64,000 nucleotides of DNA, taken from NCBI GenBank assembly GCA_047602265.1, contig JASGHU010000001.1, positions 3,465,702 to 3,529,701 of the forward strand, in the 5' to 3' direction. A program made the translations under genes and the position numbers. Source of the DNA: Spongiibacteraceae bacterium (GTDB lineage Bacteria; Pseudomonadota; Gammaproteobacteria; Pseudomonadales; CAMLJR01). Positions 5,613-26,076 of this stretch are shown here, in pieces. The notes beneath the pieces are model-generated. The model did not search any database. It saw nothing but the letters and a program-made list of their open reading frames with translations, and was not told where the DNA came from. Position 1 is the first letter of the stretch; every line of letters starts with the position of its first letter.

Positions 5613-7772
5613 CTAGCCCTCTAACACCGTGACCTGTTGCGCGACCAGCAAACTCGTCAATTGCTGCCAGGTTAGTGGCTTATAAAACCAGTAGCCCTGA
5701 AACTCATCACACCCCTCTGCGCGCAAAAATTCGAACTGCGCCGCATTTTCGACTCCTTCGGCGACGACAATTTTTCGCAAACTCTTCGCAACGGTAATCG
5801 CCGCACGCGCAATCATAGCCACCTCCTCTTCCTTCTCGACATCGCGCATCAGCGAACGATCGATCTTGATGATATCGAGCGGATAGCGCCGCAGATAACT
5901 CAGTGATGAATAGCCCGTACCGAAATCGTCCATCGCCAAAAGCACGCCAAGCTGTTTGAATTCGCGCAAGATATTGATGGTGTGCTGAGTGTCATGCAGC
6001 AACACCGATTCGGTGATTTCCAATTCGACGCAATCGGCGGGCAATTCAGTTGAGCGCAGTGCATCTTCAATCTGCGCGACAATATTGCCATTGACGAATA
6101 ATTTGGGCGATAGATTGACCGCGATACGTAAATCCACACCGTAAAGCTTTCGCCACTCCTGCGCGGCCTGAAATGCGCGACGCAATACAAATGTCGTCAG
6201 CGGTACGATTAAACCGGTCTCCTCCGCAATCGGAATAAAGCGATCCGGTGCGACCATCCCCAATTCCGGATGATGCCAACGCGCAAGCGCTTCAACGCCG
6301 ACGATCTGCCGCTGCGCATCGACTTTCGGCTGAAAGTGCACATCGAAACTTTCGTTTTCCAGTGCCTGCCGCATTGCACTCTCGAGCATCAGGCGCTCAT
6401 CGGCAACGCGATTTAATTCCGCAGTAAAAAATTGAAAATTATTACGCCCGCGCGCTTTCGCCGCGTACATCGCCACATCGGCGCGGCGCAACAAGGTTTC
6501 GGCGTCATCTGCATCGGAAGGATACAGCGCAACCCCGAGACTGCCCCCGACCTGAAACTCGGTGCCATTGATCGTAATCGGCCGTCCGATTTCCTGGATG
6601 ATGCGCTCAAGCAAATTCACCACCATGCGCACACTGTAATAATCGTTAACCACCAATACAAATTCATCGCCGCCGAGACGCGCAACGGTATCCGATTCGC
6701 GCAAGCAATTCGTCAGTCGCTTGGCGACATGTTTTAACAATTCATCGCCAGCCGCATGGCCGAGACTATCGTTGATGAATTTGAAATTATCGAGATCGAT
6801 AAAGACGAGCACCAGGAAATAACTCAGGCGATGCGCCCGCGCTATACCTTGCTCAATGCGATCGTTGAGCAAGCTGCGATTGGGCAAACCCGTCAGCAAA
6901 TCGTGCTTGGCCTGTGTCTCCAGCTGCTGCTGATAATGCTTGCGCTCGGAAATATCCTGCACCGTGCCTTCATAACAAATGAATTCGCCTTTAGGGCCGC
7001 GCACGATATGCGCGTTTTCGGAAATCCAGATGCGCGAGCGATCCTTGCGATAAACCTCTGATTCGAAATTGTTGACTTCACCGCGAGTTTTCATCACCTG
7101 ATGAAACGTCAGGCGACGATCGGGATCGACATACAATTGATGCTGAATATCCGCCAAATCGCTGATCAGCTCTTCCGGCGTATCGTAACCGTAAATTTTC
7201 GCCAGCGCTTTATTCGCCGCCAAGTAGCGGCCATCGCTGGTGGTTTGAAAAATACCTTCGGATGCGTGCTCGAAAATATGCCGATAGCGCAGCTCTGCCT
7301 GCTGCAATGCTTCCAACGTGGCGCGCTGTTCGGAGATATCTTCGATAAAACCTTCGATCACGCTTTTACCGGATTCATCCAATACGCCGATTCCGCACTC
7401 AAGAACCCATTTCCTGGCGCCACTGCGAGTGGCGATGCGGTACTGCACGGCGAAGCGCTGGCCACTCTTGATCGCCGCATCAATAATGGAGCGCACGCGC
7501 GCACGATCGGCGACATCGGTAATTTCTTCCCAGGAAATTAGACCGTCGACAAAATCCTTCGGCAGGTAGCCGGTTAGCTCCTGACAGCCTCGGCTTACAA
7601 AGACCATACTCCAATGCGCATCGTTAACGCATCGAAAGGCCATTCCCTGCAAATTATCAACGAGTGTTTCCAGCACGCGCGAGCGATCGATAACACGCGC
7701 AGAATGGAGGCTCACCGCTTCGCGGCTCTGAATTGTCGCTTCATCAAAACTCATGGATCTCAACTTCCTCAC
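5613..7772 (-). CDS. PAS-PAS-GGDEF-EAL cyclic-di-GMP signalling protein
   Basis: 719 aa. Contains the GGDEF motif (ARLGGDEFVLV), the EAL motif (VGVEALARW) with downstream DDFGTGYSSLSYL, and two PAS-like N-terminal regions. Confidence 0.9.
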   Translation of the reverse strand: MRKLRSMSFDEATIQSREAVSLHSARVIDRSRVLETLVDNLQGMAFRCVNDAHWSMVFVSRGCQELTGYLPKDFVDGLISWEEITDVADRARVRSIIDAAIKSGQRFAVQYRIATRSGARKWVLECGIGVLDESGKSVIEGFIEDISEQRATLEALQQAELRYRHIFEHASEGIFQTTSDGRYLAANKALAKIYGYDTPEELISDLADIQHQLYVDPDRRLTFHQVMKTRGEVNNFESEVYRKDRSRIWISENAHIVRGPKGEFICYEGTVQDISERKHYQQQLETQAKHDLLTGLPNRSLLNDRIEQGIARAHRLSYFLVLVFIDLDNFKFINDSLGHAAGDELLKHVAKRLTNCLRESDTVARLGGDEFVLVVNDYYSVRMVVNLLERIIQEIGRPITINGTEFQVGGSLGVALYPSDADDAETLLRRADVAMYAAKARGRNNFQFFTAELNRVADERLMLESAMRQALENESFDVHFQPKVDAQRQIVGVEALARWHHPELGMVAPDRFIPIAEETGLIVPLTTFVLRRAFQAAQEWRKLYGVDLRIAVNLSPKLFVNGNIVAQIEDALRSTELPADCVELEITESVLLHDTQHTINILREFKQLGVLLAMDDFGTGYSSLSYLRRYPLDIIKIDRSLMRDVEKEEEVAMIARAAITVAKSLRKIVVAEGVENAAQFEFLRAEGCDEFQGYWFYKPLTWQQLTSLLVAQQVTVLEG

Positions 7773-8140: not shown

Positions 8141-8156
8141 TGGCTTAGCTTTTGCA
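8141..8156 (+). promoter_or_regulatory. Sigma-54 (-24/-12)-like promoter upstream of the MCP/NIT gene pair
   Basis: TGGCTTAGCTTTTGCA has the GG-N10-GC spacing with a TTGCA -12 block, 155-200 nt upstream of the candidate starts. Confidence 0.4.
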
Positions 8157-8310
8157 CAATTTAATAGCACTGCCAACGGCGGCAGTCTAATCTGCAACGA
8201 CGCTTGTCATCTCTCCGAATCATGCTTTGCCCAGTCCTGGCGTTGACGAGCATTACGCTCTGACCAGTACCGTGGCTTGCACAATCAACTGAGGTGGTAG
8301 GCGTTTTTTT

Positions 8311-9540
8311 TTGAGTTTTCGGCGCGTCGCTCGCCCGAAGCTCTGGTGTCACGTGATGAACAATTGGTTTTTTGTCGGTGCCAAGCTGCACCTGTGGTGT
8401 GGCCGCTACACGTTCTTGCTGGCCGCCGCTATCACAGCGGCAATCGTTAGCTGTATTGCGCTGCAGATGCATCAAATCGCGGCGGCGCTCGGCGCATTTG
8501 CGCTCTACTATCATCTCTCCGTCACCGTGTTGGTCAACCAGCGGCAACAGCTCGCCGAACAGCAATTAAATTCGCTGACCGAAATGCTGCCTAGCTTCAA
8601 CACATTGGCCTACGCGCAACACGGCACGCTGATCGAAAAATTATATTGCGCATTGCGAGAACTCATCCGCGATGCACAACGCGTGCGTAGCGAGACCCAA
8701 TTTTCCGGACTGGCCTTGGAAAAATTAGCCACCGCCGCCGAACATGATTCCTCTGAGCAGCGGCGTCGTTTGGAAATGATTGCTGCAGCCGCGGAGGAAA
8801 TCTCTCAAACGGTGCAACATATTCGCAATCTCGCCGAGCAAGCGAATATCGCTTTCAACACTGTGCAAAAAAATAGCGCCGTCGGTGTGCAGGAAATGCA
8901 GCTGATGCGCAACAGCATGGTCGAAATCAAGGAAACGATGGAAAAAACTCACGAAGCGGTGACTCATTTGCTAACGCGTACAGACGCCATCGATAACTTC
9001 GTGCAAACGATTCAAGGTGTCGCCAAACAAACCCAATTGCTAGCACTCAATGCCTCGATCGAAGCTGCGCGCGCCGGCGAACACGGTCGCGGCTTTGCCG
9101 TGGTTGCCGATGAGGTGCGCTCGCTGGCGATGACGACGCAAACCGCTGCTTCCGATATCACCACGCTGATCGCACAGATCAATACCGCCGTCGAACAGGT
9201 GCGCGACAGCGTGAGCGCGCATCGCGAGTTGCTCGACGACAACAGCGAGCGCACCGATCATCTTGCCGAATCGCTGCAGTCGCTGACCGAACTTAGCCTT
9301 GCCAATCTCGATGGCCTGGCCACGCTGCAACATGCATTGAATGAACATTCGCTGGCGAGTCAATCGCTCAGCGAACAATTGCAGGAAGTGAATGGCATTG
9401 TGATTCAACAAAACGATCAGACCAGCCGCCTGCGTTCGCTCACCGTCTATCTGACGCAATTGACCGGCACGAATGTGCAAGACGCAAAGCTACAACAACC
9501 GAATCGACAATTGATGTCGAAACTGGAGGTAGCCGTATGA
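8311..9540 (+). CDS. Methyl-accepting chemotaxis protein lacking a recognisable ligand-binding domain
   Basis: Carries the conserved signalling hairpin [34 protein letters not shown]. The N-terminus has only two closely spaced TM helices. Start is TTG 8311 or ATG 8356. Confidence 0.85.
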
Positions 9541-10298
9541 TGGCTCCACTCGCACTATTCAGCATCGCGCTGCTGCTGTGTATCGCTTTCAGCCTGTACA
9601 GCTATCACCGCGCATGTCGTCATGTCGCCGCGGGTGATAATGCCAGTACGCAATTAATTGACGGCACGCTGGCGTTGATCCAGCTACTGCAAAAACACCG
9701 CGGCTTAGGCGCGCAACAAAGCGGTGTTGCCGTCACGCAGCGCACACAGATTGCGCGAGAAATCGATTATCGCTGGCGCGACTGGGCCATCCACCTTGGC
9801 GATCTGGAATACCTGCAAACACAATGGATGCGGCTAAAAAATACGCCGAGCGATTTCGAAGGGCACTCGCACATCATCAAAGATTTACTGGGGTTTATCG
9901 AAATTCTTGCGCTGCGGGTGAACGGCCCTGCACTCGATCAACGCCTTGCATTTGCAGAGCGTTGTCGCGCACTGGAAGATCTGGCCAAGCTCCGCGGCCT
10001 CTCGGCGCGCGCCGCCAATTACCCGCAATGCCCAATCGAACTTAAAGTCATGCTGAAATATCTATGCACGAATCTGCACAGCTCCGGCTTGCAGAACAGT
10101 AGCAACGCCCTGCGCGCTGCGCTCAATGAAATCAATCAGAACATGCTCGACGCAAATCGCACAACGATCAGCGCCGCGCGCTGTTTCGAAATACTCACGC
10201 CAATCATCGACGAAGCGCTCGATGAATTGCGTCAATCGATCAACACCCTTAATCAATCAAGCAACCATCAGCAGATGAATCTGGCATACGTTGTTTGA
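9537..10298 (+). CDS. Membrane-anchored NIT-like (nitrate/nitrite-sensing type) domain protein
   Basis: 253 aa. Its start overlaps the MCP stop (ATGA). It has one N-terminal TM helix followed by [17 protein letters not shown], which resembles the NIT-domain LQKERG signature. The domain call is by eye only. Confidence 0.5.
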
Positions 10299-10300
10299 AA

Positions 10301-10345
10301 ATTAAAGGTTAGACAATTAAAGGTTTGATAATTAACAGCTCGATA
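10301..10345. repeat. Three degenerate 15-bp tandem units related to the 5496 array
   Basis: ATTAAAGGTTAGACA / ATTAAAGGTTTGATA / ATTAACAGCTCGATA. The first unit matches the reverse complement of the 5496 unit (ATTAGGGGTTAGAAG) at 11 of 15 positions. Confidence 0.6.
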
Positions 10346-10356
10346 ACCTGGGGAAG

Positions 10357-10389
10357 AACGCTGATTCGTAAAATCAGCGTTTATTTTTT
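10357..10389 (+). terminator. Rho-independent terminator of the MCP-NIT pair, overlapping the nikR stop
   Basis: AACGCTGATT-cgtaa-AATCAGCGTT followed by TATTTTTT. Confidence 0.75.
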
Positions 10390-10829
10390 GGAGCGTGCAG
10401 CGGTGGAATCACCGCAGCCATCAACTGCAACCTGCCAGTGATCACGCCGCGCATAGTGATCATCTCGTCGGCGATTTGTTGCAGGCGCAGCACGGGGCCC
10501 TGCACCAGAATCACCTCCATGGTTTGATGATGCATGAGGTGCACATGCAGCGAACTGATAACTTCGTCGATATGTTCGTGCTGTAAATCGGCCAACTGCT
10601 TTTGCAACCCGCGCGTCGAATGGTCATACAACAGCGTGATCGTGCCCGCCATCACCTCATCGCCAAACTCGCGCTTATGCTCGACGACATGCTGATTGAT
10701 CATGTCGCCGATCGCCTGCGAGCGACTTTCGAAACCGCGCCTCTCGACCATTTCATCGAGATCGATCAACAATTCTTCCGGTAACGAAATGCTAATGCGG
10801 CTGACGAGATTTTTTAATTCTTTAGCCAT
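10374..10829 (-). CDS. nikR: Nickel-responsive regulator NikR
   Basis: 151 aa. Ribbon-helix-helix N-terminus (RISISLPEELLIDLDEMVERRGFESRSQAIGDMI) and an ACT-like C-terminal domain with His-rich metal-site residues (HEHIDEVISSLHVHLMHH). Confidence 0.85.
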   Translation of the reverse strand: MAKELKNLVSRISISLPEELLIDLDEMVERRGFESRSQAIGDMINQHVVEHKREFGDEVMAGTITLLYDHSTRGLQKQLADLQHEHIDEVISSLHVHLMHHQTMEVILVQGPVLRLQQIADEMITMRGVITGRLQLMAAVIPPLHAPKNKR

Positions 10830-12655: not shown

Positions 12656-13411
12656 TCACTTAAAATGGGAGTGATCCAGCGGTGGATTTTCACTAACACC
12701 ACGCATGATGAGATCGCTCAAATCCTCAACCATCCACGCAAACCATTCGCGACCTTTATCGGCATTGGCTCGACTTGGAAATCCCGTTACGCCGTTGGTG
12801 CTCGTACGATTCACCGGATGCGCAAACACTAAATTATCGGTGCGATCGGGATCGTCGGCTTCGGTCAGCAATTCGGTGCGCACCATCTGTGGTGCGCGCG
12901 CCAGCATCAATGACGTTTCAGCATCGTTCGCGTGCCAGTCATCACCATCGGCAAAGTGAAACTCACGTACACGTTTTGAGATCGTCGCTGAGTTAAAAAT
13001 TGCCACCATCATGTCGTCGTGCTCGGAACGCAGCATTTCGAGCGCACAACGCAACGGCGCCGCGTTGGTGACATGCGTATTGACGATAAATAAACGGCGC
13101 ACGCCGCTGCGATATGCCCAATCGCCGATTTGTTTAATCAATTCAATCAGCGTGATCGGTTGAATCGCTATCGTGCCGGGCCAGCGTTCGCTGTGCCCGA
13201 GTGAACAGCCATACGGCATCGTCGGCAACATCGGCACTTGTGTTTGTTGCGAAACAGCGCGACACAATTCATCGGCGAGTACGAAATCCATGCCGCACCC
13301 CATGTGCGGGCCATGCTGTTCAGTCGCACCGATCGGTAAAATCGCAGAGTTATTGACTGCGCTTAATTGCGCGGGCAATTCAGCCCAGGTCGATTCAGCC
13401 CACAGCATCAT
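12656..13411 (-). CDS. Creatininase-family metal-dependent amidohydrolase
   Basis: 251 aa. Carries LPIGATEQHGPHM, the FIVNTH block and a DAETS acidic ligand region, as in creatinine amidohydrolase / ArfB / MftE-type enzymes. It starts 15 nt after the ABC ATPase stop. Confidence 0.85.
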   Translation of the reverse strand: MMLWAESTWAELPAQLSAVNNSAILPIGATEQHGPHMGCGMDFVLADELCRAVSQQTQVPMLPTMPYGCSLGHSERWPGTIAIQPITLIELIKQIGDWAYRSGVRRLFIVNTHVTNAAPLRCALEMLRSEHDDMMVAIFNSATISKRVREFHFADGDDWHANDAETSLMLARAPQMVRTELLTEADDPDRTDNLVFAHPVNRTSTNGVTGFPSRANADKGREWFAWMVEDLSDLIMRGVSENPPLDHSHFK

Positions 13412-13426
13412 TTACTCGCTTCAAGA

Positions 13427-14344
13427 TCATTCAATCTCTTCGACATCATCGCCGACACGCACCATGCGGATCATATTCGGCGATACCTTATCGCTTTCAT
13501 CCTCCTCAACCGCGGGTGGATGAATCAACGCTTCGAGACGTGCTTTGGTGGCGAGAAATTCCGGCGATAAATATTGTTCGGAAAAATTGCGCGGACGCGG
13601 TACGGGAACCTCGATCAACTCCTGCACTTCGCCGGGATGTGCCTTCAACACGAGAATGCGATCGGCGAGAAAAATAGCCTCATCCAGATCGTGCGTGATA
13701 AATAAAATCGTGATATCGATATTTTTCCAGATTTCGAGCAGGTGCGATTGCATCTTGCAGCGCGTCTGCGCATCGAGCGCACCGAACGGCTCATCCATCA
13801 ATAAAATACGCGGCTGATTCGCCAGTGCGCGTGCAATAGCCACACGCTGCTTCATGCCGCCGGATAATTGATGCGGATAGGCATCGGCGAATTTCGATAG
13901 ACCAACCAGATCAAGCCACTGCAGCGCCTCGCTTTCGGCAACGCCACCGCGATTGTTCATTTCGAGGCCAAACATCACGTTCTTTTTGACAGTTAGCCAA
14001 GGAAACAGCGTGTAGCCCTGAAACACCATGCCGCGATCGGAACCGGGCGCTGTCACCGCTTTGCCATCGAGCAATACTTCGCCAGAGGTATACGATTCGA
14101 GCCCGGCGAGAATTCGAATTAATGTCGATTTTCCGCAGCCCGATGGGCCGATTACGCAGACGAATTCGCGACGATGCGTTTTGAAATTAATATCGCGAAG
14201 AGCGGTGACTGCGCCTTGAGCACTGTCATACGTTTTGCCGAGATGCTTGACTTCGAGAATCACTTCGCGCTGTTTCAATTTGTCAAAACGCGAACGTACC
14301 GCATCCGATTGTTCGAGATAGCTTGGCAGATTCGTTTCACTCAT
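13427..14344 (-). CDS. ABC transporter ATP-binding protein (NitT/TauT family)
   Basis: Walker [10 protein letters not shown], signature [15 protein letters not shown], Walker [13 protein letters not shown]. Confidence 0.9.
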
Positions 14345-14389
14345 CGCATCAAATCCTGGACAAATTCGCTGGGGCAGACCGTGTTTGCG

Positions 14390-15418
14390 TTACGCTTTAT
14401 TCGGCGAGCGTTCCCACGGGAATAACCATTTCGCCATCCACGACAGCAGCAAATCAGTGACAAGACCGATAATGCCAATAATGATGATGGCGGCATAAAC
14501 ATTCTCGAAATTCTTGTAACGTGCCTGCTGCGTGATAAACCAGGTAATGCCTGAGCTGGTGCCGATCAATTCCGCCACGATTAAATAGGTCCAAGCCCAA
14601 CCCAGCAAAATGCGCTGATCGCGATACAGATCGGGGAGAATCCCAGGAATTACCACGCGAAACAGCAGCTGCATTTTTTTGGCGCCGAGCGTAAGCGCAG
14701 CTTCCAGCAACGAGATATCGAGTTTGCGTGTGGTGTTGGCAATGACCAGCACTTGCTGAAAGAAGGTGCCGATAAAAATGATCGCGATTTTCGGGCCGTC
14801 ATAAATACCGAGAATCGCTACCGCCAACGCACCGAAGGCAGGTGCCGGCAAATAGCGAAAGAATTCGATGAAGGGTTCACTCAAGCGTGAAAATACGGTG
14901 AATGTTCCGCACAAGATGCCGAGTGGCACACCGATGATCGACGATGCAACGAAACCCCAGAAGATAATTTGAATGCTGTGCCACAAACTTTCATGAAGCC
15001 ATTGGCCATCTTTGCGTTCTGGCGCAGTGGTAAATCCGGTATACAGCGCTTTGGCGACCAAATGCGGCGCCGGCAAATAGATTGGATTCGCTGGCGTTCC
15101 CTGCGGTAACTTCTGCCCCGCAGCCTGAGCGGTGGCAGACTCATCGGCGAATACCGATTTTTCAACCAACATGTCGGGAGCAAAATAACTCACATCTCCC
15201 GGCTCGGTGATACGCATCATCGGATGCCATATGAATGGCACGTAACTGACGATGCTCCAGATGAATAACGGCAGTAAAAACGAACCGATCGTGAGTAACA
15301 ATCGCTCGCGCGGCGACAATTCCTTGCGCACCGCGAACCACGATGTTTTTTGAACTGCGGATTTCTTTTGCATCACCGCACCCGTCACGTCTTTCTCGAT
15401 CTGCTCTACTGCCGTCAT
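14390..15418 (-). CDS. ABC transporter permease (NitT/TauT family)
   Basis: 342 aa and polytopic. It has an EAA-like loop (LEAALTLGAKKMQLLFRVVIPGILP). Confidence 0.9.
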   Translation of the reverse strand: MTAVEQIEKDVTGAVMQKKSAVQKTSWFAVRKELSPRERLLLTIGSFLLPLFIWSIVSYVPFIWHPMMRITEPGDVSYFAPDMLVEKSVFADESATAQAAGQKLPQGTPANPIYLPAPHLVAKALYTGFTTAPERKDGQWLHESLWHSIQIIFWGFVASSIIGVPLGILCGTFTVFSRLSEPFIEFFRYLPAPAFGALAVAILGIYDGPKIAIIFIGTFFQQVLVIANTTRKLDISLLEAALTLGAKKMQLLFRVVIPGILPDLYRDQRILLGWAWTYLIVAELIGTSSGITWFITQQARYKNFENVYAAIIIIGIIGLVTDLLLSWMAKWLFPWERSPNKA

Positions 15419-15430
15419 GTCGCAGGTCTC

Positions 15431-16426
15431 TTAAAGACCGGAAGTGAACGAAGGATCGATATAGCTTTCGATCGGCTGTGCAGTTTTATAAACACTGTAT
15501 TTCACGTTGAAGTCGTCGACGATTTTGGTCGAGCCATAGATCGATTTGAAACCTTCGGCTTTGACATAAGCTGCTTTCGCTTCAGGCAGCGTGAGAATTT
15601 TTGTTCCCTTCAACAGCGCATCGTATTCTGCGGCAGGTACACCGACACGCGCAGCCATGATTTTCACGGCATCGGCGTGCGTTTTCGGATCATGGATGTA
15701 ATCGACAACGCGATACCAAACCTTCACGACTTTTTGCCAATCGGCTTTGCGCGCGGCTACACTTGCTGGATTCACCGCGAGCACGTCGTAAATCAAACCG
15801 GGCTCATCCGCCGAGGTGTAAATCGGTTTCGAACCGGGAACGAGTTTCAGCGCCATACCGGAGTTAGGCTGCCACGCACCGATCGCAGCGACACCACCCG
15901 ATGCCAGAACTTGCGGTGTTTCGTTAGTCGGCGAATTGACGAGCTCAACATCGCTCTCTTTCATGCCGGCTTTTTCGAGACCATTGAGCAGCAGCAGGTG
16001 ATCGACAAATCCAACTTCTACGCCCACTTTTTTGCCTTTCAAATCTTTGAGCGATTTGATGCCGGGCTTGCCGACAATCATGTCGTTGCCGTTCGAATAG
16101 TCGTTGATAAGAATCATCACGCTCTTCGCGCCGTTGGCACCGGTGACAAGTGCATCGCCATTGGTAACCGTTACCGCATCGAGTTTTCCTGCAGCGTAGG
16201 CATCCATCGAAGCGACATAATCGAACCACTCGAATTGCACATCGACACCGGCCTCTTTAAACCAGCCTTTCTCGATGGCGACTTGCCAAGCCACCCATCC
16301 CGGCCAATCCGAGTAGCCCACTTTCAATGGTGGCGCCGCGAATGCCGGCAACGCTGCGCTACATAGCAGAGACAAAGCAACACGCTTGAGCCAGCGTGCA
16401 CACACGTTTTTCGTACGTTGTTTCAT
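15431..16426 (-). CDS. ABC transporter periplasmic substrate-binding protein (NitT/TauT family; the type usually found next to urea/guanidine carboxylase genes)
   Basis: Signal peptide ends ...[21 protein letters not shown] prefer the ATG at 16426 (SD GGGAGA); the track ORF extends to the TTG at 16441. Confidence 0.85.
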
Positions 16427-16514
16427 TGCGGGTTCTCCCAAAGGTCACGTTCACTGCTTGTTTTCAACAACTGGTTTCGAGTATTACGATTTGATCTTGC
16501 CGTAATACCGTGTG

Positions 16515-16530
16515 AGCAACCCCCATGCCA
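16515..16530 (-). promoter_or_regulatory. Sigma-54 -24/-12 promoter for the ABC transporter operon
   Basis: The minus strand reads TGGCATGGGGGTTGCT (GG-N10-GC, TTGCT -12 block), about 90 nt upstream of the ATG at 16426. Confidence 0.6.
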
Positions 16531-16652: not shown

Positions 16653-16734
16653 TTTGCCAGAAAAAAAAACTTGGGTTAGCCTGAAAAAAGACAGCGATAA
16701 CTGCAGTGTTTTATCGCCTGTTTGGAGTAAGCAA

Positions 16735-16882
16735 TGGACGACTAGGGTTCCGGTTTTCTAAGCAGCCACATCGATTGAGGTGCAGCGAAAACGGCAGGTC
16801 CGAGAGTTGTCGACCTCATCGAACCGATCTTGCCAATTTGTTCGCGAGGTTACACGGCGGGATAAAAGCCCGGGAGATTTTG
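16735..16882 (+). promoter_or_regulatory. Guanidine-I riboswitch (ykkC-yxkD motif)
   Basis: The invariant blocks appear in the right order: ACTAGGGTTCCGG ... GGTCCGAGAG ... ACACGGCGGGATAAAAGCCCGGGAGA. It sits about 125 nt upstream of the first DUF1989 gene. Confidence 0.85.
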
Positions 16883-17005: not shown

Positions 17006-17818
17006 ATGGGTATGCCTCACAACGAATCCTTAAACAAATCTTTATTCGCATCGACGAAACCTCTCTATCGCGACGAAATCGAAGGCGGTAAGCACTGGTC
17101 TTTCGTAATCAAGCGCGATCACGTCCTACGCATTATCGACAAAGACGGCGGTGCCAATGTCGGCATGCTGTTTTACAACCCGCTCAATCCGCTCGAACGC
17201 TACAACGCACCCGATACGCTGAAATGTCAGCACACGTTCAAGCTCACCAAAGGGCATTGCCTGTATTCGGATATGGGCCGCATTTTTTGTTCTATCGTCG
17301 ACGACACTTGCGGCTGGCATGACACCGTCGCCGGCACCAGCAATAAAGCGCTCGTAAAAAATCGCTGGGGCGAACACAACTATCAACAATTTCGCAACGA
17401 CTGGTACTTAAATGGGTATGACAGCTTTCTCGTCGAACTCGCCAAATACGGTTTGGGAAGAAAAGATTTAGCGGCCAACGTCAATTGGTTCAGTAAGGTC
17501 GCGGTCGACGACGCGGGCAATTTTCAGTATGACGAAAGCCACAGCAAAGCCGGCAATTATGTCGACCTGCGTTTTGAGATGGATACGCTGGTGATTTTCA
17601 ACACCTGCCCACATCCGCTCAATAAATCCAGCGAATATCCACGCAAATCGATCATCTACGAATTTTACGAAGCAGCGCCGCGCGCCGCCGACGATTTCTG
17701 CGAGCACTCGTGCTGCGAGAACGAACGCGGATTTAAAAATAATGCGCTCTACCATCTTCAAGCGACAGGCGCATTTCCTATTTTCAAAAACCAGAATGGC
17801 TTCGGAGGTGCGCAATGA
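17006..17818 (+). CDS. DUF1989 'urea-carboxylase-associated' protein, probable carboxyguanidine deiminase subunit (CgdA/B type)
   Basis: 270 aa and a paralogue of the next gene. It sits between the riboswitch and the carboxylase. The start could be 17012. Confidence 0.8.
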
Positions 17819-18450
17819 TACTCTCAAGCCAACTCGCACCCGAAGCAGCAACGTATCGCAAAGTCATTCCAGCCGGCGATTACTGGATGCACGTGATCAA
17901 GAAAGGTCAGGTATTGCGCATTCTCGATCTCGAAGGCAATCAGGCGGCGGACACACTGTTTTATTCGGCTGCTGATCCCGGCGAACGCTACTCTGCTGTC
18001 GACACCATTCGCGAACAAGGCAATGTGTATTTAACCGCGGGCACGAAATTATTATCGAACGAAGGCAATGTGCTGCTCGAAATCGTCGCCGATACCTGCG
18101 GCAGACACGACACCCTCGGCGGCGCGTGCGCAACCGAATCGAATACCGTGCGTTACGCACTCGAAAAGAAATGCATGCATGCGTGTCGCGATAGCTGGAT
18201 GCTCGCCGTTGCCGAAAACGAAAAATTCGGCATGACCAAGCGCGACATTACCCACAACATCAATTTCTTCATGAACGTGCCGGTAACACCCGAAGGCGGT
18301 TTGACGTTCGCCGACGGTATTTCCGAAGCCGGAAAATACGTTGAATTAAAAGCCGAGATGGATGTGATCGCGCTGCTGTCGAATTGCCCGCAGCTGAACA
18401 ATCCATGCAATGCATACAACCCAACACCGATTGAAGTGTTGATTTGGTGA
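17815..18450 (+). CDS. DUF1989 'urea-carboxylase-associated' protein, second probable carboxyguanidine deiminase subunit
   Basis: 211 aa. ATGA start/stop overlap with the previous gene. The two share the motif pattern ([20 protein letters not shown] versus [20 protein letters not shown]). Confidence 0.8.
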
Positions 18451-18460
18451 GGGTGACAAT

Positions 18461-21400
18461 ATGTTTAACGCTGTATTAATCGCCAATCGCGGCGCCATTG
18501 CCTGCCGCATTATTCGTACGCTGAAAGCGATGAATATCCGCGCCATCGCCGTGTATTCGGAAGCCGATGCCGACTCGCGCCATGTCGCGCTCGCCGATGC
18601 CGCTTTCAGTTTGGGTGTTGGCAATGCCGCGCAAACCTATCTCGATCAGGACAAGTTATTTGCGATCGCGAAGCAAAGCGGCGCGCAGGCAATTCATCCG
18701 GGTTATGGATTTCTGAGTGAGAACGCAGGCTTCGCACGCCGCTGTGCCGCAGAAAATATTGTATTCCTCGGCCCCACGCCCGAGCAGATGGAGGCCTTCG
18801 GCCTCAAGCACACCGCGCGACAACTCGCGGTCGACAGCAAATTACCGCTGCTGCCAGGCAGCGGCTTACTCGACACGTTAGACGAAGCGATTACAACAGC
18901 TGAACGCATCGGCTATCCACTCATGTTGAAATCCACCGCGGGCGGCGGCGGTATCGGCATGCAGCTGTGCTTTAGCGAAGACGATTTGCGCGCAGCGTAC
19001 GATTCGGTGCGCAGACTTTCTGCCAATAATTTTTCGAACAGCGGTGTGTTCCTCGAAAAATACGTCGGCAATGCACGCCATATCGAAGTACAAATTTTCG
19101 GCGATGGCAAAGGCGGCGCGCTCGCGCTCGGCGAACGTGACTGCTCGACACAGCGCCGCAATCAGAAAGTTATCGAAGAAACGCCAGCGCCGAATTTACC
19201 CGAGAGCGTGCGCACGCAATTGCGCGATGTTTCGATTCGTCTCGCCAGCGCCGTGCAATACCGCAGCGCGGGCACCATCGAATTTATTTACGATCCACAG
19301 GCCGAGCAAGTTTACTTTCTCGAAGTCAATACGCGACTGCAGGTCGAACACGGCGTCACCGAACAGATTTACGGCGTCGATCTCGTGCGCTGGATGATCG
19401 AAGTTGGCGCAGGCGAATTGCCGCCGCTCGATCAACTCGCCAAAAATCTAACCCCGCGCGGCCATTCGATTCAGGTGCGCTTGTACGCGGAAGATCCCGG
19501 CAAGAATTTTCAGCCGAGTGCAGGATTACTCAGCTCAGTAGATTTCCCGGAAGCTGACGGCAAGCAATTGCGAATTGATCACTGGCTCGAAGCGGGCATC
19601 GAGGTCTCGCCCTTCTTCGACCCGATGCTCGCGAAAATTATTGTGTGGCGCGACACGCGCGAAGCGGCGATTGACGCTCTCGATCACGCACTGTCGCAAA
19701 GCACGGTTTACGGAGTCGAAACCAATCGCGATTATTGCCGCGCGATTTTGCGCAGCGACATTTTTACACGCGGTGAAATCCACACGCGCTATCTCAATCA
19801 ATTCGAATTTCTGGCTCCGCGCATCGATGTGCTGCGCGCGGGCACGATGACGACGATTCAGGATTTTCCCGCTCGCGGCGGCTACTGGGATGTCGGCGTG
19901 CCGCCGTCGGGACCGTTCGACGATTGGTCGTTCCGGCTTGGCAATCGCCTGCTCGGCAACGATGAGAAATGCGCGGGCCTCGAAATCACACTCAACGGCC
20001 CGACACTGCAATTTCGAACCGCAACACAAATTGTGTTGGCTGGTGCACCACTCGCAGCAAAACTCAACGACGCGCCGGTCGATTATTGGCAAGTGATCGA
20101 TATTGCTGCGGGCGATGTGTTGTCGATTGGCAGTAACACCGCATCGGGAGCGCGCGCGTATTTGCTCGTGCGCGGCGGCATTGAATGTCCGGATTATCTC
20201 GGCGCAAAATCCACATTCACGCTCGGCCAGTTCGGCGGTCATAACGGCCGTGCATTGCGTGCGGGCGATGTGATTGCGATTTCGCCGCTCGAAGCGAAAG
20301 TTGACGCAAAGCTATTAGCGAGCGATTTAATTCCCGCGCTCAATTCGACGTGGGATATTCACGTTATTTACGGCCCGCATGGCGCACCCGATTTTTTCAC
20401 GCCGAGCGACATTGAGAAATTCTTCGAAGCCGAATGGGAAGTGCATTACAACTCCTCGCGCACGGGCGTGCGTCTGATCGGCCCGAAACCCGAATGGGCG
20501 CGCAGCGATGGCGGCGAAGCAGGCATGCATCCGTCGAATATTCACGATAACGCCTACGCACTGGGCAGCATCGATTTCACCGGCGATATGCCCGTGATTC
20601 TCGGGCCCGATGGCCCTTCGCTCGGCGGTTTCGTGTGCCCCGCTACGGTCATTCGCGCCGAGCGTTGGAAAATTGGCCAGCTCAAAGCCGGAGATCGTGT
20701 GCGTTTTGTTCCGGTCACGCTTGCGACTGCCGAAAAAATCGAACGCGCACAACTCGCTGCGCTGGAAAACTTAAGCGCACAAAATATCGCTGTCGAATCC
20801 TGCACAAGTCTGCCGAATCCAATCATCGATTCCATCGCGGCAACCGATGCGAGTGTCGCGGTGAATTATCGCTGCGCCGGCGATAAATTTCTGCTCGTCG
20901 AATACGGTCCGATGATGCTCGATATCGATCTGCGTTTTCGCGTGCACGCACTCATGCTCGAATTACAACGCAGTAAACCCGCCGGTATTTTCGAGATGAC
21001 GCCGGGTATTCGCTCGCTGCAAATTCATTACGACAATCTGCGCATCAGCACCGCGCAATTGATTGCGTGGCTGAAAGATACCGAAGCCAAACTCGGTGCG
21101 AGCGACGATCTCGAAGTACCTGCGCGTGTCGTTTATTTGCCGCTGTCGTGGGATGACGAAGCCTGTCGCCTCGCGATCGAGAAATACATGCAGTCGGTGC
21201 GCAAAGACGCGCCGTGGTGCCCGAGCAATATCGAATTCATTCGCCGCATCAACGGCCTCGATAGCATCGACGACGTGAAAAAAACCGTGTTCGATGCGAG
21301 TTATGTGGTGATGGGCCTCGGCGATGTGTATCTCGGTGCGCCCGTAGCCACGCCGCTCGATCCGCGCCATCGCCTCGTCACCACCAAATACAATCCTGCA

Positions 21401-22075
21401 CGCACGTGGACGGCGGAAAACTCAGTCGGCATCGGCGGCTCATATATGTGCGTGTACGGCATGGAAGGTCCTGGCGGCTATCAATTTGTCGGCCGCACGC
21501 TGCAGATGTGGAACCGCTATCGCACCACGAAAGAATTTTCCAAACCATGGCTGCTGCGCTTCTTCGATCAGATTCGCTTTGTCGAAGTCAGTGCCGAAGA
21601 ACTTGTAAAAATTCGGCGCGATTTTCCCAATGGACGTTATTCGCTGCGCATCGAAGAAACCACCTTCAACTTGCAGCAGTACCGCCAATTTCTGCGCGAC
21701 AACGCGGACGACATCGCCGCCTTCACGAAAACACGCGATGAGGCCTTCGCGGAGGAGCTGCAGCGCTGGCGCGATAACGGCCAATTCACCTTCGACAATA
21801 CCCCGCTCGATGTCGATACGAGTGGGGATACCGAGCAGCTTCCACCGGGTGGCATTGCGGTGGAAAGTCAGGTCGCGGGCAGCATTTGGAAGATTCTGGT
21901 CAAGCCCGGTGAAAAAATTAAATCGGGCCAGATTATTGCTGTGCTCGAATCGATGAAAATGGAGATCGACGTACACGCCAGCGTCGACGGCGTTGTACAC
22001 AACATTGCCCGCGGGGAAGGCAGCCAGATCGGCGCTGGCCAAACTCTGATGGTGATTCGCGAGGAGAAAATTTAA
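18461..22075 (+). CDS. Biotin-dependent urea/guanidine carboxylase (context favours guanidine carboxylase)
   Basis: 1204 aa. N-terminal biotin carboxylase (MFNAVLIANRGAIACRIIRT...), central carboxyltransferase/KipA-KipI-like regions, and a C-terminal biotinyl domain with the AVLESMKME motif. Confidence 0.9.
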   Translation: MFNAVLIANRGAIACRIIRTLKAMNIRAIAVYSEADADSRHVALADAAFSLGVGNAAQTYLDQDKLFAIAKQSGAQAIHPGYGFLSENAGFARRCAAENIVFLGPTPEQMEAFGLKHTARQLAVDSKLPLLPGSGLLDTLDEAITTAERIGYPLMLKSTAGGGGIGMQLCFSEDDLRAAYDSVRRLSANNFSNSGVFLEKYVGNARHIEVQIFGDGKGGALALGERDCSTQRRNQKVIEETPAPNLPESVRTQLRDVSIRLASAVQYRSAGTIEFIYDPQAEQVYFLEVNTRLQVEHGVTEQIYGVDLVRWMIEVGAGELPPLDQLAKNLTPRGHSIQVRLYAEDPGKNFQPSAGLLSSVDFPEADGKQLRIDHWLEAGIEVSPFFDPMLAKIIVWRDTREAAIDALDHALSQSTVYGVETNRDYCRAILRSDIFTRGEIHTRYLNQFEFLAPRIDVLRAGTMTTIQDFPARGGYWDVGVPPSGPFDDWSFRLGNRLLGNDEKCAGLEITLNGPTLQFRTATQIVLAGAPLAAKLNDAPVDYWQVIDIAAGDVLSIGSNTASGARAYLLVRGGIECPDYLGAKSTFTLGQFGGHNGRALRAGDVIAISPLEAKVDAKLLASDLIPALNSTWDIHVIYGPHGAPDFFTPSDIEKFFEAEWEVHYNSSRTGVRLIGPKPEWARSDGGEAGMHPSNIHDNAYALGSIDFTGDMPVILGPDGPSLGGFVCPATVIRAERWKIGQLKAGDRVRFVPVTLATAEKIERAQLAALENLSAQNIAVESCTSLPNPIIDSIAATDASVAVNYRCAGDKFLLVEYGPMMLDIDLRFRVHALMLELQRSKPAGIFEMTPGIRSLQIHYDNLRISTAQLIAWLKDTEAKLGASDDLEVPARVVYLPLSWDDEACRLAIEKYMQSVRKDAPWCPSNIEFIRRINGLDSIDDVKKTVFDASYVVMGLGDVYLGAPVATPLDPRHRLVTTKYNPARTWTAENSVGIGGSYMCVYGMEGPGGYQFVGRTLQMWNRYRTTKEFSKPWLLRFFDQIRFVEVSAEELVKIRRDFPNGRYSLRIEETTFNLQQYRQFLRDNADDIAAFTKTRDEAFAEELQRWRDNGQFTFDNTPLDVDTSGDTEQLPPGGIAVESQVAGSIWKILVKPGEKIKSGQIIAVLESMKMEIDVHASVDGVVHNIARGEGSQIGAGQTLMVIREEKI

Positions 22076-23928
22076 TGCTGGCTTTTGAACAAATCGATCT
22101 CACTATTTCCGGCCTGCGCGCGCATTACCAACGCGGCGATTTCACACCGCGCGAATTGATCGCCCTGCTGCGCGAGCGCAGCAAGCAATTCGTCGATCGC
22201 AATATCTGGATTCATGAGTTGAGCGACGCCGAGATCGACATTTACTTGAGTGCTCTCGATAAGCGCTCACCCACCGATGCACCGCTGTACGGTGTTCCCT
22301 TCGCCATTAAAGATAATATTGACCTCGCCAACATCGAAACAACCGCTGCGTGCAAAGCCGTCGCATTCACGCCGAGCGAAGATGCATTCGTCGTCAATAA
22401 TTTAATTGCTGCCGGCGCGATTCCACTCGGCAAAACCAATCTCGATCAACTTGCGACGGGCATCAATGGCACGCGCTCACCGTGGGGCCCCGGCAAAAAC
22501 AGTTTCGATCCAAAATATATTTCGGGCGGTTCGAGTTCGGGTTCGGCGATTGCGGTTGCACTCGGCATCGCCACATTTTCGCTCGGCACCGACACCGCAG
22601 GCTCCGGCCGCATTCCCGCCGCGTTCAACAATATCGTCGGCTGGAAACCCACACGCGGCATTTTAAGCAGCCGCGGTATGCTGCCCGCATGCCGCACACT
22701 CGACTGCATCACGCTGTTCACCTCCACCGCCGCCGATACCGCTGCATTGCTGCCCTTCGTCGCGCGTTACGATGAGAAGGATGCCTACGCACGCGTCAAT
22801 CCTGCGCACAATACATCGAACAGCGGCATGGCGAATCCGTTCGGTGCACCTGCCAAAAAATCGTTTAAATTCGGTGTACCGCGCGCCGATCAGCTTGAAT
22901 TTTATGGCAACGAAAACTATGCAGCAGCGTTTGCGAAAAGTATTGCATTGCTCGAAAGCATCGGCGGTATCAAACGCGAGATCGATTTCCGTGATTTTCT
23001 CGATGCCGCGCGCCTGCTGTACGAAGGCCCATGGATTGCCGAGCGTTATCACGGCATTCGCGAACTGATCGATAGTAATCCTTCTGCGTTATTGCCCGTG
23101 ATTCAAACCATCATCGGTCAGGGCCGCGATAAATCCGGCGTCGATACGTTCGATGCGATGTACAAAATGCAGGAATTCCGCCGCAAGATCGAACCTCTCA
23201 TCAACTCGCTGGAATTCATTGCAACACCAACCGCGGGCACGCATTTCACGATTGAAGAAATGCTGGCCGAACCGATTCTGCATAATTCGCAGCTCGGCTA
23301 TTACACCAACTTTATGAATCTGCTCGATCTTGCCGCTGTCGCTGTGCCCACGCAGATACTCGACAACGGCATGCCCTTCGGCATTACCTTATTTTCCGAT
23401 CGCTTCACCGATCTGCGTTTGCTCAGTTACGCACAAAAAATTCAAGCGACGACGAAACTGCCGCTTGGCGCCACGAAAAAAGCGGTTGAATTCCCCGCGC
23501 TGCCCGCACGCACCGAATTATCGACGTGCAAGGTTGTCGTCTGCGGCGCACACATGAGCGGCCTGCCATTCAACAATCAATTACTCGCGCGTCAAGCGAA
23601 ATTAATTTCAAAAACCAAAACGTCGTCGAGCTATCGCTTCTACGCGCTTCCAGGCGGCGCGGTACAACGTCCGGGTTTGATTCGTGTCGGCTCTCTCAAT
23701 GACGCTAGTGCTGGGGGCGGCGCAGCGATTGAAGTCGAAGTTTGGGAAATGCCGAGTGTCGAATTCGGCTCCTTCGTCGCCGCGATTCCGCAACCGCTCG
23801 GTATCGGCAAAGTGGAATTGGAAAGTGGTGAATGGGTACCGGGATTTATTTGCGAAGGTTATGCAGTAAACGGCGCGGAAGATATTACGGCGCTCGGCGG
23901 GTGGCGGAATTTTATCGGGCGCAAATAA
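22075..23928 (+). CDS. Allophanate hydrolase
   Basis: 617 aa. Amidase-signature domain (GGSSSGSAIAVALG, GTDTAGSGRIPAAFNN) plus the extra C-terminal domain typical of allophanate hydrolases. TAATG overlap with the carboxylase. Confidence 0.9.
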   Translation: MLAFEQIDLTISGLRAHYQRGDFTPRELIALLRERSKQFVDRNIWIHELSDAEIDIYLSALDKRSPTDAPLYGVPFAIKDNIDLANIETTAACKAVAFTPSEDAFVVNNLIAAGAIPLGKTNLDQLATGINGTRSPWGPGKNSFDPKYISGGSSSGSAIAVALGIATFSLGTDTAGSGRIPAAFNNIVGWKPTRGILSSRGMLPACRTLDCITLFTSTAADTAALLPFVARYDEKDAYARVNPAHNTSNSGMANPFGAPAKKSFKFGVPRADQLEFYGNENYAAAFAKSIALLESIGGIKREIDFRDFLDAARLLYEGPWIAERYHGIRELIDSNPSALLPVIQTIIGQGRDKSGVDTFDAMYKMQEFRRKIEPLINSLEFIATPTAGTHFTIEEMLAEPILHNSQLGYYTNFMNLLDLAAVAVPTQILDNGMPFGITLFSDRFTDLRLLSYAQKIQATTKLPLGATKKAVEFPALPARTELSTCKVVVCGAHMSGLPFNNQLLARQAKLISKTKTSSSYRFYALPGGAVQRPGLIRVGSLNDASAGGGAAIEVEVWEMPSVEFGSFVAAIPQPLGIGKVELESGEWVPGFICEGYAVNGAEDITALGGWRNFIGRK

Positions 23929-24441: not shown

Positions 24442-26076
24442 TCAGGAAAAACGCACAAACTCCCCCTGCGCCGACGACATCGAGCGGTCGTTGGTTGCAG
24501 CGGTTGACGGTGCTGTGGTTGACGGCACTTTGCTTACATCGACCCGAATGTTGTCGCCGCGTTGTTCAGACACTTTGAAGAACGAAACCATATCCAGCAA
24601 ATGATTCGCTTGCGATCCCATTTCCTCGGAAGTTGCCGCCAGCTCCTCTGAAGCACTCGCATTTTGCTGCGTCGTTTGATTGAGCTGCCCCATAGCACTG
24701 TTGATCTGCTCCACTCCGGTCGACTGTTCCTGCGCAGCGGCAGAAATTTCTTCGATAAGATCCGAAGTACGCTTGATCGAAGGCACGATAGCATCAATCA
24801 ACTCACCCGCTTTTGTCGCACGCGCGACTGACGATATCGCCAAACTGCTGATTTCTTCGGCGGCGACGCGACTGCGCTCGGCGAGCTTGCGAACTTCGGT
24901 AGCTACGACCGCAAAGCCCTTGCCGTGATCACCCGCGCGTGCCGCTTCAATCGCTGCATTCAGCGCAAGCAAATTCGTTTGATAGGCGATGTCATCGATA
25001 ATATTTATTTTTGCGGCGATTTGTTGCATCGCTTGCAGAGTGTCCGACACCGCACCCCCACCCTGCTCAGCATGCCCAGCCGCCGTGGTAGCAATATTTT
25101 CGGTGACCTTGGCATTTTCGGCAGATTGACCAATCGATGCGCTCATCTGCTCGATCGAGGCCGATGTTTCTTCAACGCTCGCGGCCTGCTCGGATGTTGC
25201 CTGAGCGAGACTCTGGGCTGTAGCGGAAACCTGATCAGCTGCATTTTTCAGGTTGTCTGCGCTGTCTACTACACTGCCAATAGTCGTCGATAGGCGGGCA
25301 ATCATTTCCTGCATGGCAGACATCATCTGTCCAATTTCATCGGTTGATCTTGCCTCCACACGCACGGTCAAGTCGCCATGCGCAAGCGCAGTCGCTGCAA
25401 TCAACGCCTCTTTCACGGGACGTACAATGCTCACTGTCAGCAACAGCGCAATCAAAATGGTGAGAATACCCGCTGTGGCTGATAACCCAACGATGGCGTG
25501 ACGCGCGATGATTGCCTGCTCGTGAGAAATTCGCCCTGCAGCTGCAGCAATATCTTTTTCCTGCTGCTCGAGAGCTTTAATGCTATCGGCGTAAGCACTG
25601 GCGACTTTTGAATATTCGCCAAGCACCATATCGATCGCTTTTTTTCGGTTATAGGAGGGCGAATCGATATCAGCCAGCTTAAGTAGCTTTTCAAGTTCAT
25701 CACGGTAAGCCGCTCTAGCATTCGTGAGCTGCGTAAATGATTCTTTTCCCTTTTCAGAATCAATCTTCGACTCAAACTTTTGCAGAATCTCGCTATTGCG
25801 CCTGACGAAATTTTCTACGATGGCCAATTGCTGTCGCTGATAATCTTTGTCCTCGGACAGGATTAAATTGCGCAACGCCTGCGCCTGAATCAGCGAATTT
25901 TCAAAAACCTCTGAGGACATTTCCAGTTTGGGAATTTTATCATCGGCCAGATCCAGCGCGTCACCCGCCAACACCGAGATCTTGTTGTAAGCGATTCCCG
26001 AAACTGCAAGCATGAGCAGAAAAATGACGGAGAAACCCAACGCCAAACGGTAGCCTACATTCAGATTTTTGAGCAT
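24442..26076 (-). CDS. Methyl-accepting chemotaxis protein (helical-bundle sensor, HAMP, signalling domain)
   Basis: 544 aa with two TM helices, a HAMP region ([22 protein letters not shown]) and the signalling hairpin [34 protein letters not shown]. Confidence 0.9.

Follow-up and report, generated by a model that had tools for sequence, protein, structure and literature searches.

A sensor-less chemoreceptor gene overlapping a gene for a divergent, membrane-anchored NIT-domain protein: a possible two-protein receptor behind an ANTAR-type leader

The stretch of DNA analysed here, hereafter the window, comprises 64,000 nucleotides of contig JASGHU010000001.1 from a Spongiibacteraceae bacterium (assembly GCA_047602265.1, positions 3,465,702 to 3,529,701). 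On its forward strand it carries a gene for a methyl-accepting chemotaxis protein (MCP) without a sensor domain (8356-9540) and, overlapping its end, a gene for a 253-residue protein (9537-10298) that we relate below to the NIT (nitrate/nitrite-sensing) domain. A putative sigma-54 promoter and a structured leader precede the pair, and a terminator scan placed an intrinsic terminator at 10356-10382, with an 11-bp stem followed by a T-run, in the element that ends the operon (10356-10391, +). The initial annotation of this DNA had recognized such a terminator and proposed that the two genes encode a split chemoreceptor. Its observation is confirmed by our analysis and its interpretation is supported. 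The two-hairpin leader with its attenuator, the locus L122 and the EAL-type third gene, all described below, were not part of it.

The MCP contains 394 residues (8356-9540, +). MCPsignal (PF00015; E = 1.6e-33, 116 bits against a cut-off of 34.6) is its sole Pfam domain, and no PAS, Cache or any other sensor domain was found in it by Pfam. Following a 17-residue N-terminal tail, two hydrophobic segments detected by hydropathy scan (TM1, residues ~18-36; TM2, ~41-60) form a transmembrane (TM) hairpin closed by a loop of only four residues, QMHQ. The ~54 residues between TM2 and the signalling domain are of HAMP size and, read from the sequence, have a helix-connector-helix look without a Pfam HAMP match; they could be a HAMP-like linker. 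The conserved motif of the signalling hairpin tip is present, the tip being E242, and a rough estimate gives a 36H-like heptad class. EE/EQ motifs resembling those of methylation helices can be read in the expected MCP helices, which is only suggestive of methylation by CheR/CheB; no che genes were found in the 64-kb window. Initially annotated as a 409-residue protein with two TM helices, a short loop and no sensor, the MCP has the described architecture but not the described length. All homologues begin at the equivalent of the ATG at 8356 (MNNWFF...) while the TTG at 8311, a mechanical call rejected here, lies within the U-run of the upstream leader terminator; the MCP is thus 394 and not 409 residues long. 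The 409-residue NCBI-style call for the MCP of locus L114 is probably the same start artefact (8311-8355). The TM hairpin without sensor is kept in 10 of 10 partner MCPs compared.

As initially noted, the MCP stop codon and the start codon of the second gene overlap as ATGA (9537-9540). A Shine-Dalgarno sequence, GGAGG (9525-9529), lies 8 nt upstream of the second start. The encoded protein of 253 residues (9537-10298, +), 100% identical to NCBI entry QM709_15805, has a single N-terminal hydrophobic helix, the hydropathy scan agreeing with the initial reading on this point. The resemblance of its remaining part to NIT domains, also proposed initially, did not withstand a check with PF08376: neither the protein nor 24 relatives matched NIT in Pfam or NCBIfam, even at E<=10, and a PDB sequence-profile search with the 253-residue protein returned only a spurious short match to hemocyanin at the motif QKHRGL. 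It was recovered by more sensitive comparisons. The AF2 model, built on a 25-sequence alignment (pLDDT 89, pTM 0.80), has eight helices, and its best Foldseek matches in the PDB are to NasR (4akk_A and 4akk_B; E = 4e-3 and 8e-3, probability 1.00, TMq 0.54-0.64), the next match being about 40-fold worse (E = 0.18) and all others at E = 0.18 or worse. An exhaustive HMMER search of 1.84 billion representative proteins with the family profile yielded 127 proteins. The weaker profile matches P0130, P0175, P0186 and P0189 (E = 5e-7 to 4.5e-4) score 33.8-50.3 bits with PF08376 against a cut-off of 24.9, and P0175 and P0189 are classical TM-NIT-TM-HAMP-MCP receptors. P0135, of the same stand-alone architecture as the window protein, has a precomputed Pfam NIT match. 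Finally, hhalign aligned the family with an alignment of NIT proteins over 213 columns (98.9% probability, E = 1.2e-17), a comparison that is partly circular in that the family's own profile had supplied the proteins of the NIT alignment.

According to hhalign, eight of the positions invariant in the five-sequence NIT alignment (H68, R69, W124, H145, E189, R195, F283 and I290) are retained, corresponding to H54, R55, W97, H110, E147, R153, F217 and I224 of the window protein. The motifs LQKHRG (containing H54 and R55) and LEDLAKLRG (E147 and R153), invariant in 25 relatives, align with QQHRG and EDLGKIRG of canonical NIT proteins, through which they were matched rather than directly onto NasR residues. 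These helix-1 and helix-5 motifs of NIT domains carry the arginines proposed for nitrate binding (NasR E175/R176 region). Based on the predicted fold, the reach of the profile to Pfam-positive NIT proteins and the hhalign result, we conclude that the 253-residue protein is a divergent NIT domain missed by the Pfam model, the relationship being one at the profile and fold level only. The analysis also shows that a sizeable NIT branch escapes the current Pfam model. A metal site formed by H54 and H110 was considered and rejected, both histidines being generic NIT invariants. Three cysteines, C143, C165 and C216, are invariant in the core family and absent from the canonical NIT proteins aligned.

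The positively charged flank of a TM helix is generally the cytoplasmic one (positive-inside rule). Among the core relatives, 74 of 74 follow a charge bias in which Lys and Arg residues average 0.01 ahead of the TM helix but 3.5 over the 15 positions that follow it, and 59 of 60 distant stand-alone relatives share this bias. Given this bias and the positive-inside rule, the N-terminus of the NIT protein is predicted to lie outside and its NIT domain in the cytoplasm, on the same side as the MCP signalling domain and in line with the initial proposal of a cytoplasm-facing domain. A periplasmic NIT domain was rejected: the charge bias speaks against it and the MCP loop measures only four residues.

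Genome and metagenome locus scans gave almost only Pseudomonas-type homologues, and MCP-linked relatives were gathered protein by protein. The MCP gene directly precedes the NIT gene, overlapping or closely spaced, in loci whose NIT proteins share 86% (L114), 76% (L004/L005), 75% (L115), 55% (L006/L007), 48% (L116-L119) and 45% (L008/L009) identity with that of the window. An MCP gene of ~380-400 codons also lies directly upstream in all four distant representatives sampled, namely L120 (P0103), L122 (P0111), L123 (P0135, Zobellella-like) and L125 (P0127, Pseudoalteromonas-like). All lineages sampled outside Pseudomonas thus carry the pair, and so do some Pseudomonas, where 11 Pseudomonas-type loci, e.g., that of P. 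indica, keep the MCP beside the NIT gene; the lineages include Cellvibrionales-like, Pseudomonas, Pseudoalteromonas-like and Zobellella-like bacteria. Locus by locus, MCP identity (89/79/56/51/50%) tracks NIT identity (86/76/56/48/45%), and gene order, spacing (overlap or a gap of <30 nt) and the sensor-less MCP persist while NIT identity falls from 86% to ~22%. Neither of the two computational refutations named by the initial annotation came about: NIT homology was found by profile and fold, and the pair proved to be conserved well beyond close relatives. Eight of the 11 Pseudomonas-type MCP-linked loci carry tandem NIT paralogues in the order MCP-NIT-NIT (L030, 4013-6723; L013, L020, L029, L040, L050, L077 and L110). 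The widespread stand-alone Ectopseudomonas gene corresponds to the second NIT copy and has its own sigma-54-like site.

A third gene, coding for an EAL-containing enzyme of cyclic di-GMP (c-di-GMP) metabolism, usually follows the NIT gene (L004, L005, L115, L006, L008, L009, L120, L122 and L123). Its product is a dCache_3-GGDEF-EAL protein of ~822 residues in L004 (5762-8237), L115, L006 and L008, an EAL protein in L120, an EAL-YkuI_C protein in L122 and a PAS-PAS-GGDEF-EAL protein in L123; L116 holds a partial third gene, with a dCache_3 N-terminus after the NIT gene. The third gene is absent from the window, L114 and L125. In the window and L114, nikR directly follows the NIT gene, at the place where relatives carry the GGDEF-EAL gene in between, which is most simply explained by loss of the third gene in the lineage of these two loci. 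Its absence from the window is clean (10298-10374), 76 nt and the terminator being left before the convergent nikR. On the other side of the pair, a divergent neighbour (5613-7772, -) encodes a 719-residue protein with the Pfam architecture PAS-PAS-GGDEF-EAL, the same as that of the L123 third gene, and such a divergent neighbour is also found in L004 and L114. This protein is a possible c-di-GMP partner, linked to the pair by context. In Pseudomonas putida, c-di-GMP inhibits antitermination by NasT (PMC10783516).

Upstream of the MCP gene, a sigma-54-type promoter-like element, TGGCTTAGCTTTTGCA, was found by pattern match (8141-8156, +), with GG and GC at -24/-12 spacing. The initial annotation had singled out this site. 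As a pattern alone it is not significant, with four occurrences in the window against 1.7 expected; its position is nevertheless conserved. Equivalent TGGC(A/T)..TTG(C/A/T) sites lie 20-30 nt upstream of the first hairpin in 7 of 7 distinct leaders, TGGCC-N6-CTTGCT precedes the MCP gene in nine Pseudomonas-type loci, and TGGC-N7-TTGCW occurs 46-77 nt upstream of the stand-alone paralogues in 90 of 94 loci. Sequence conservation hence supports a putative sigma-54 promoter ahead of the MCP-NIT operon.

The leader that follows contains two tandem hairpins. P1 (8169-8186, +; ACUGCC-AACGGC-GGCAGU in the minimum-free-energy fold) has a hexaloop whose first and fourth positions are A and G and whose closing pair is C:G, and P2 (8189-8208, +) has the core GC-AACGAC-GC at 8194-8203. 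Across seven distinct leaders, neither hairpin varies at A1, at G4 or in the closing C:G pair. Since MAFFT misaligned the raw leader segments, pairs were counted on equal-length hairpin segments of the seven leaders. P1 has compensatory changes in 4 of its 6 pairs, with pairing in 93% of cells. For both hairpins together, 7 of 13 pairs show a compensatory change and the paired fraction of cells is 82%, compared with 25-59% when the partners are slid; none of the shuffles attained the observed covariation. Predicted folds place an intrinsic terminator acting as attenuator further downstream (8199-8312, +), with arms at 8199-8213 and 8291-8305 and a U-run to 8312. Its 5' arm overlaps the 3' half of P2, making the two structures mutually exclusive. 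P1 and a long terminator whose 5' arm overlaps P2 were obtained in all four leaders folded (window, L004, L006 and L008), and a GGCG-T7-9 element, the end of a long stem followed by U7-9, is conserved among the leaders.

The published rules for targets of ANTAR proteins are two tandem hexaloop stem-loops with A1, G4 and a closing C:G (PMC7496416, PMC10783516). Because the two A1/G4 hexaloop hairpins and the overlapping terminator match the published features, we assign the leader to the antiterminator design used by ANTAR proteins such as NasR and NasT. The Rfam narK RNA (RF03032) matched below threshold, with 24.5 bits for the window and 26.0 bits for L004 against a gathering score of 43.2. 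Its consensus consists of a sigma-54-like box, GGCaCA..UUGCU, and a CCAACGGCGG hairpin, and only the box and P1 are shared with the leader; a literature search on the narK motif found no description of it. No other convincing ANTAR-type leader came up in a window-wide scan.

An ANTAR homologue adjacent to the pair was met once among the other sampled loci, in L122. Here the gene order is MCP, NIT, EAL-YkuI_C, a 214-residue ANTAR protein, an NrtA-like binding protein and a permease. The binding protein has its best PDB matches with NrtC and NrtA (E = 2.6e-66 and 4e-53), against 7e-39 for the bicarbonate-binding CmpA, and the best match of the permease is the NrtB model (175 bits, below the cut-off). 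Upstream of the NrtA-like gene (~3975-4050 of L122) are a sigma-54-spaced AGGCATAGTTAATGCT and a single hairpin, GAGCC-AAUGGC-GACUC, whose loop matches the P1 and P2 loops of the MCP-operon leaders; no clear terminator follows it. It is the ANTAR-type nas/narK leader and the locus L122, and not the nitrogen-related neighbourhood of the window, that link the module to nitrate or nitrite.

We tentatively favour, as a reading somewhat short of probable, a bipartite chemoreceptor that senses the cytoplasm in the manner of CetA/CetB, with a NIT sensor, a ligand that is probably nitrate or nitrite, and regulation by sigma-54 and an ANTAR-type protein. In such a receptor the MCP would act as transducer only, its membrane hairpin and HAMP-sized linker leading to the signalling hairpin that couples to CheA/CheW. 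The co-translated 253-residue protein would be the sensor, its N-terminal anchor tethering the NIT domain to the cytoplasmic side of the membrane. We infer that the two proteins interact physically, the NIT domain lying beside the membrane-proximal part of the MCP and modulating it, by analogy with CetB acting on CetA or SRII on HtrII. The operon would be transcribed from the sigma-54 promoter under nitrogen limitation, and competition between the leader hairpins and the terminator would restrict synthesis of the receptor to times when a NasT/NasR-like ANTAR protein is active. Cytoplasmic nitrate and/or nitrite would be the most likely ligand. Domain identities, the topology bias, the conservation of the pair and the anatomy and covariation of the leader are results of the analysis; the contact between the proteins, the ligand, the dependence on sigma-54 and an ANTAR protein, and the output in taxis belong to the proposal. 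The ancestral unit probably coupled N-oxyanion status to taxis and c-di-GMP, the EAL gene having been lost in the lineage of the window. A broader generalization, namely that these are widespread gammaproteobacterial two-protein receptors for intracellular nitrate/nitrite, belonging to an NtrC/sigma-54 and NasT-type regulon and ancestrally wired to an EAL phosphodiesterase, is on present evidence rather doubtful.

Several observations weigh against the bipartite nitrate/nitrite receptor. Among them are, on the protein side, the lack of a Pfam match both for HAMP in the MCP and for NIT in its partner, and the partial circularity of the hhalign comparison. The NIT domain of PA4520 from Pseudomonas aeruginosa bound neither nitrate nor nitrite (PMC6381276). 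Most Pseudomonas and Ectopseudomonas homologues stand alone between an AraC gene and lon, without an adjacent MCP gene, so the NIT protein does not need one beside it to function. No ANTAR or nas gene was found in the 64-kb window, and its nitrogen-rich neighbourhood is common only to close relatives, L006, L008 and L125 having unrelated neighbourhoods. In the leader, the Pseudomonas versions of the operon have the sigma-54 site without the ANTAR hairpins, and P2 is weak in the window, with 2+2 bp. The same hairpin has 4-7 bp in L006, L008, L116 and L118, and a weak P2 is as expected of a structure that needs a protein to beat the terminator.

Other explanations would account for part of these observations. 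The receptor may be bipartite as proposed while its NIT-like domain senses another anion, a nitrogen metabolite or, through C143, C165 and C216, the redox state. The result with PA4520, whose authors propose that NIT domains form a superfamily with varied ligands (PMC6381276), points this way, as do the divergence of the family beyond the Pfam NIT model and the three core-invariant cysteines that canonical NIT proteins lack. However, all the NIT-invariant His, Arg, Glu and Arg positions are kept, the leader is of the nas/narK type, and in L122 the module lies beside an ANTAR gene and an NrtA-like transporter; we regard a different ligand as unlikely. About as improbable, in our view, is a module that serves mainly as a c-di-GMP device, in which the NIT protein and/or the MCP-like protein regulate the adjacent EAL or GGDEF-EAL enzyme and the MCP need not join chemoreceptor arrays. 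This would resemble BdlA of P. aeruginosa, which works with the phosphodiesterases DipA and RbdA in biofilm dispersal. The EAL-containing gene directly after the pair in nine loci, the dCache_3 N-terminus in L116, the divergent PAS-PAS-GGDEF-EAL gene in the window and the inhibition of NasT antitermination by c-di-GMP in P. putida (PMC10783516) all fit such a device. Yet conservation is stricter for the MCP-NIT pair than for the third gene, which is missing from the window, L114 and L125. The varied architectures of that gene (dCache-GGDEF-EAL, PAS-GGDEF-EAL, EAL-YkuI_C) fit co-regulation better than a fixed complex, and the MCP has a canonical hairpin tip together with EE/EQ motifs like those of methylation helices.

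A further rival is a NasR split in two, in which the NIT protein would keep an ANTAR protein sequestered at the membrane as long as nitrate and nitrite are absent and would thereby autoregulate the leader, with the MCP merely co-expressed. In NasR the NIT domain directly contacts and autoinhibits the ANTAR domain (PMC7496416). The leader of the operon is of the ANTAR-target type, in L122 the second gene downstream codes for a small ANTAR protein, and NasS acting on NasT provides a parallel. But the conserved partner of the NIT gene is the MCP gene and not an ANTAR gene, which is adjacent in a single sampled locus and absent from the window, and the Pseudomonas versions lack the ANTAR hairpins; we regard this arrangement as highly improbable. 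The same very low likelihood is given to two genes that are simply adjacent and co-transcribed and functionally uncoupled, the MCP signalling through its membrane hairpin or an unrelated partner. The many stand-alone NIT homologues of Pseudomonas would agree with it, whereas the order, spacing and sensor-less MCP preserved across lineages, down to ~22% NIT identity, argue for coupling.

The wider window is rich in genes for nitrogen scavenging: nikR, a type III glutamine synthetase-like gene, a creatininase-family gene, a NitT/TauT-type ABC transporter, urease, and a guanidine-I riboswitch followed by urea carboxylase and allophanate hydrolase. The initial annotation had used this neighbourhood as an argument for an N-compound receptor. 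The neighbourhood is real, the argument weak, and it was rejected as functional evidence because the neighbourhood is not conserved with the module. The riboswitch lies at 16731-16878 (+; Rfam, 82 bits against a cut-off of 63), and the genes associated with it at 17006-23928 (two DUF1989 genes, a gene for a 1204-residue urea-carboxylase-type enzyme and one for allophanate hydrolase) have a known guanidine-degradation layout. Adjoining this guanidine/urea carboxylase cluster is a second, conventional chemoreceptor gene (24442-26076, -) whose 544-residue product contains 4HB_MCP_1, HAMP and MCPsignal domains. The NitT/TauT-type transporter operon occupies 12656-16441 (-), and about 75 nt upstream of its binding-protein gene is a second sigma-54-like site, TGGCATGGGGGTTGCT (16515-16530, -); the operon may be sigma-54 dependent. 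An Rfam match to the 5' ureB small RNA (38285-38571, +; 91 bits, above gathering) lies antisense within an open reading frame of the size of a urease alpha subunit (37020-38723, -) and may just reflect the conservation of urease.

Many bacterial chemoreceptors lack a recognizable sensor domain, and how signals enter them is largely unexplained. The MCP-NIT pair suggests a concrete, conserved and genetically tractable answer for one class of sensor-less MCPs, the sensor being the NIT protein encoded by the next gene. If correct, the proposed regulation would add a behavioural receptor to the metabolic operons under ANTAR/NasT-type antitermination. It would also establish a physical link between nitrate status, motility and c-di-GMP, so far shown only through the binding of c-di-GMP to NasT in P. 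putida. Under the broader and rather doubtful generalization given above, taxis would be promoted and c-di-GMP lowered by the uptake of nitrate and, because c-di-GMP inhibits NasT (PMC10783516), positive feedback on nitrate assimilation would result. The hypothesis is directly testable since culturable carriers of the pair or of proteins of the same family exist, namely Pseudomonas indica NBRC 103045, P. xionganensis, Zobellella endophytica and Pseudoalteromonas sp. MMG010.

In haloarchaea, the transducer HtrII has two TM helices and no ligand-binding domain and receives its input from SRII, a separate sensor embedded in the membrane. Fragments of HtrII were among the PDB matches. SRII is a seven-TM photoreceptor acting through TM-TM contacts, whereas the sensor of the window would be a soluble-type domain on a single anchor. 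CetA/CetB of Campylobacter jejuni (PMC2628428) and CetB2/CetA2 of Magnetospirillum (PMC12442639) share with the window pair a transducer made of a two-TM hairpin with a short loop and no periplasmic domain, which leads through a linker to the MCP signalling domain, and a separate, co-transcribed sensor at the cytoplasmic face of the membrane. The pair differs from CetA/CetB in its sensor, a NIT-like domain rather than a PAS/FAD one, which has its own N-terminal anchor where CetB is peripheral. It differs further in the order transducer then sensor with a 4-nt overlap, the lack of a Pfam HAMP match, and the sigma-54 site and ANTAR-type attenuator. By analogy, it would therefore work like CetAB without being a member of the CetAB family, its sensor not being a PAS protein.

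As for the sensor, NasR of Klebsiella oxytoca (NIT-ANTAR, PDB 4AKK) is the best fold match, shares the LQxHRG and E..L...R motifs and is likewise cytoplasmic. Unlike NasR and PF08376 members, the window protein is below Pfam detection, stands alone, is anchored to the membrane, has no output domain and carries three subfamily-invariant cysteines. Canonical NIT chemoreceptors (PA4520, PMC6381276; P0175, P0184, P0189) combine the same two domain types, NIT and MCP signalling, and in both cases the TM helix runs straight into NIT helix 1, hhalign covering both. They are single polypeptides with a periplasmic NIT domain, whereas the window encodes two polypeptides with a NIT domain predicted to be cytoplasmic, hence in the opposite orientation, and smaller by about 50 residues than the aligned periplasmic NIT domains.

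The leader resembles those of nas and nirBD operons, which are controlled by NtrC/sigma-54 together with NasR or NasS-NasT (PMC10783516, PMC7496416), in its sigma-54-type promoter and its two hexaloop hairpins, the second of which competes with a terminator. In P1, the loop with its closing pairs reads CCAACGGCGG, exactly as in the consensus of Rfam narK RF03032. Unlike all these leaders, that of the window precedes a chemoreceptor operon and not genes of assimilation or transport. The initial annotation had seen no description of such an arrangement. Chemoreceptors in two pieces are known from CetA/CetB and SRII/HtrII, and only the NIT version appears to be undescribed. A limited literature search returned no description of stand-alone NIT proteins paired with MCPs, of a nas-type attenuator on such an operon, or of an EAL companion. 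Two-piece chemoreceptors, NIT sensors and ANTAR-responsive leaders are each already known, and what appears to be new is the combination of a sensor-less MCP with a membrane-anchored cytoplasmic NIT subunit, the nas-type attenuator in front of such an operon and its frequent EAL companion.

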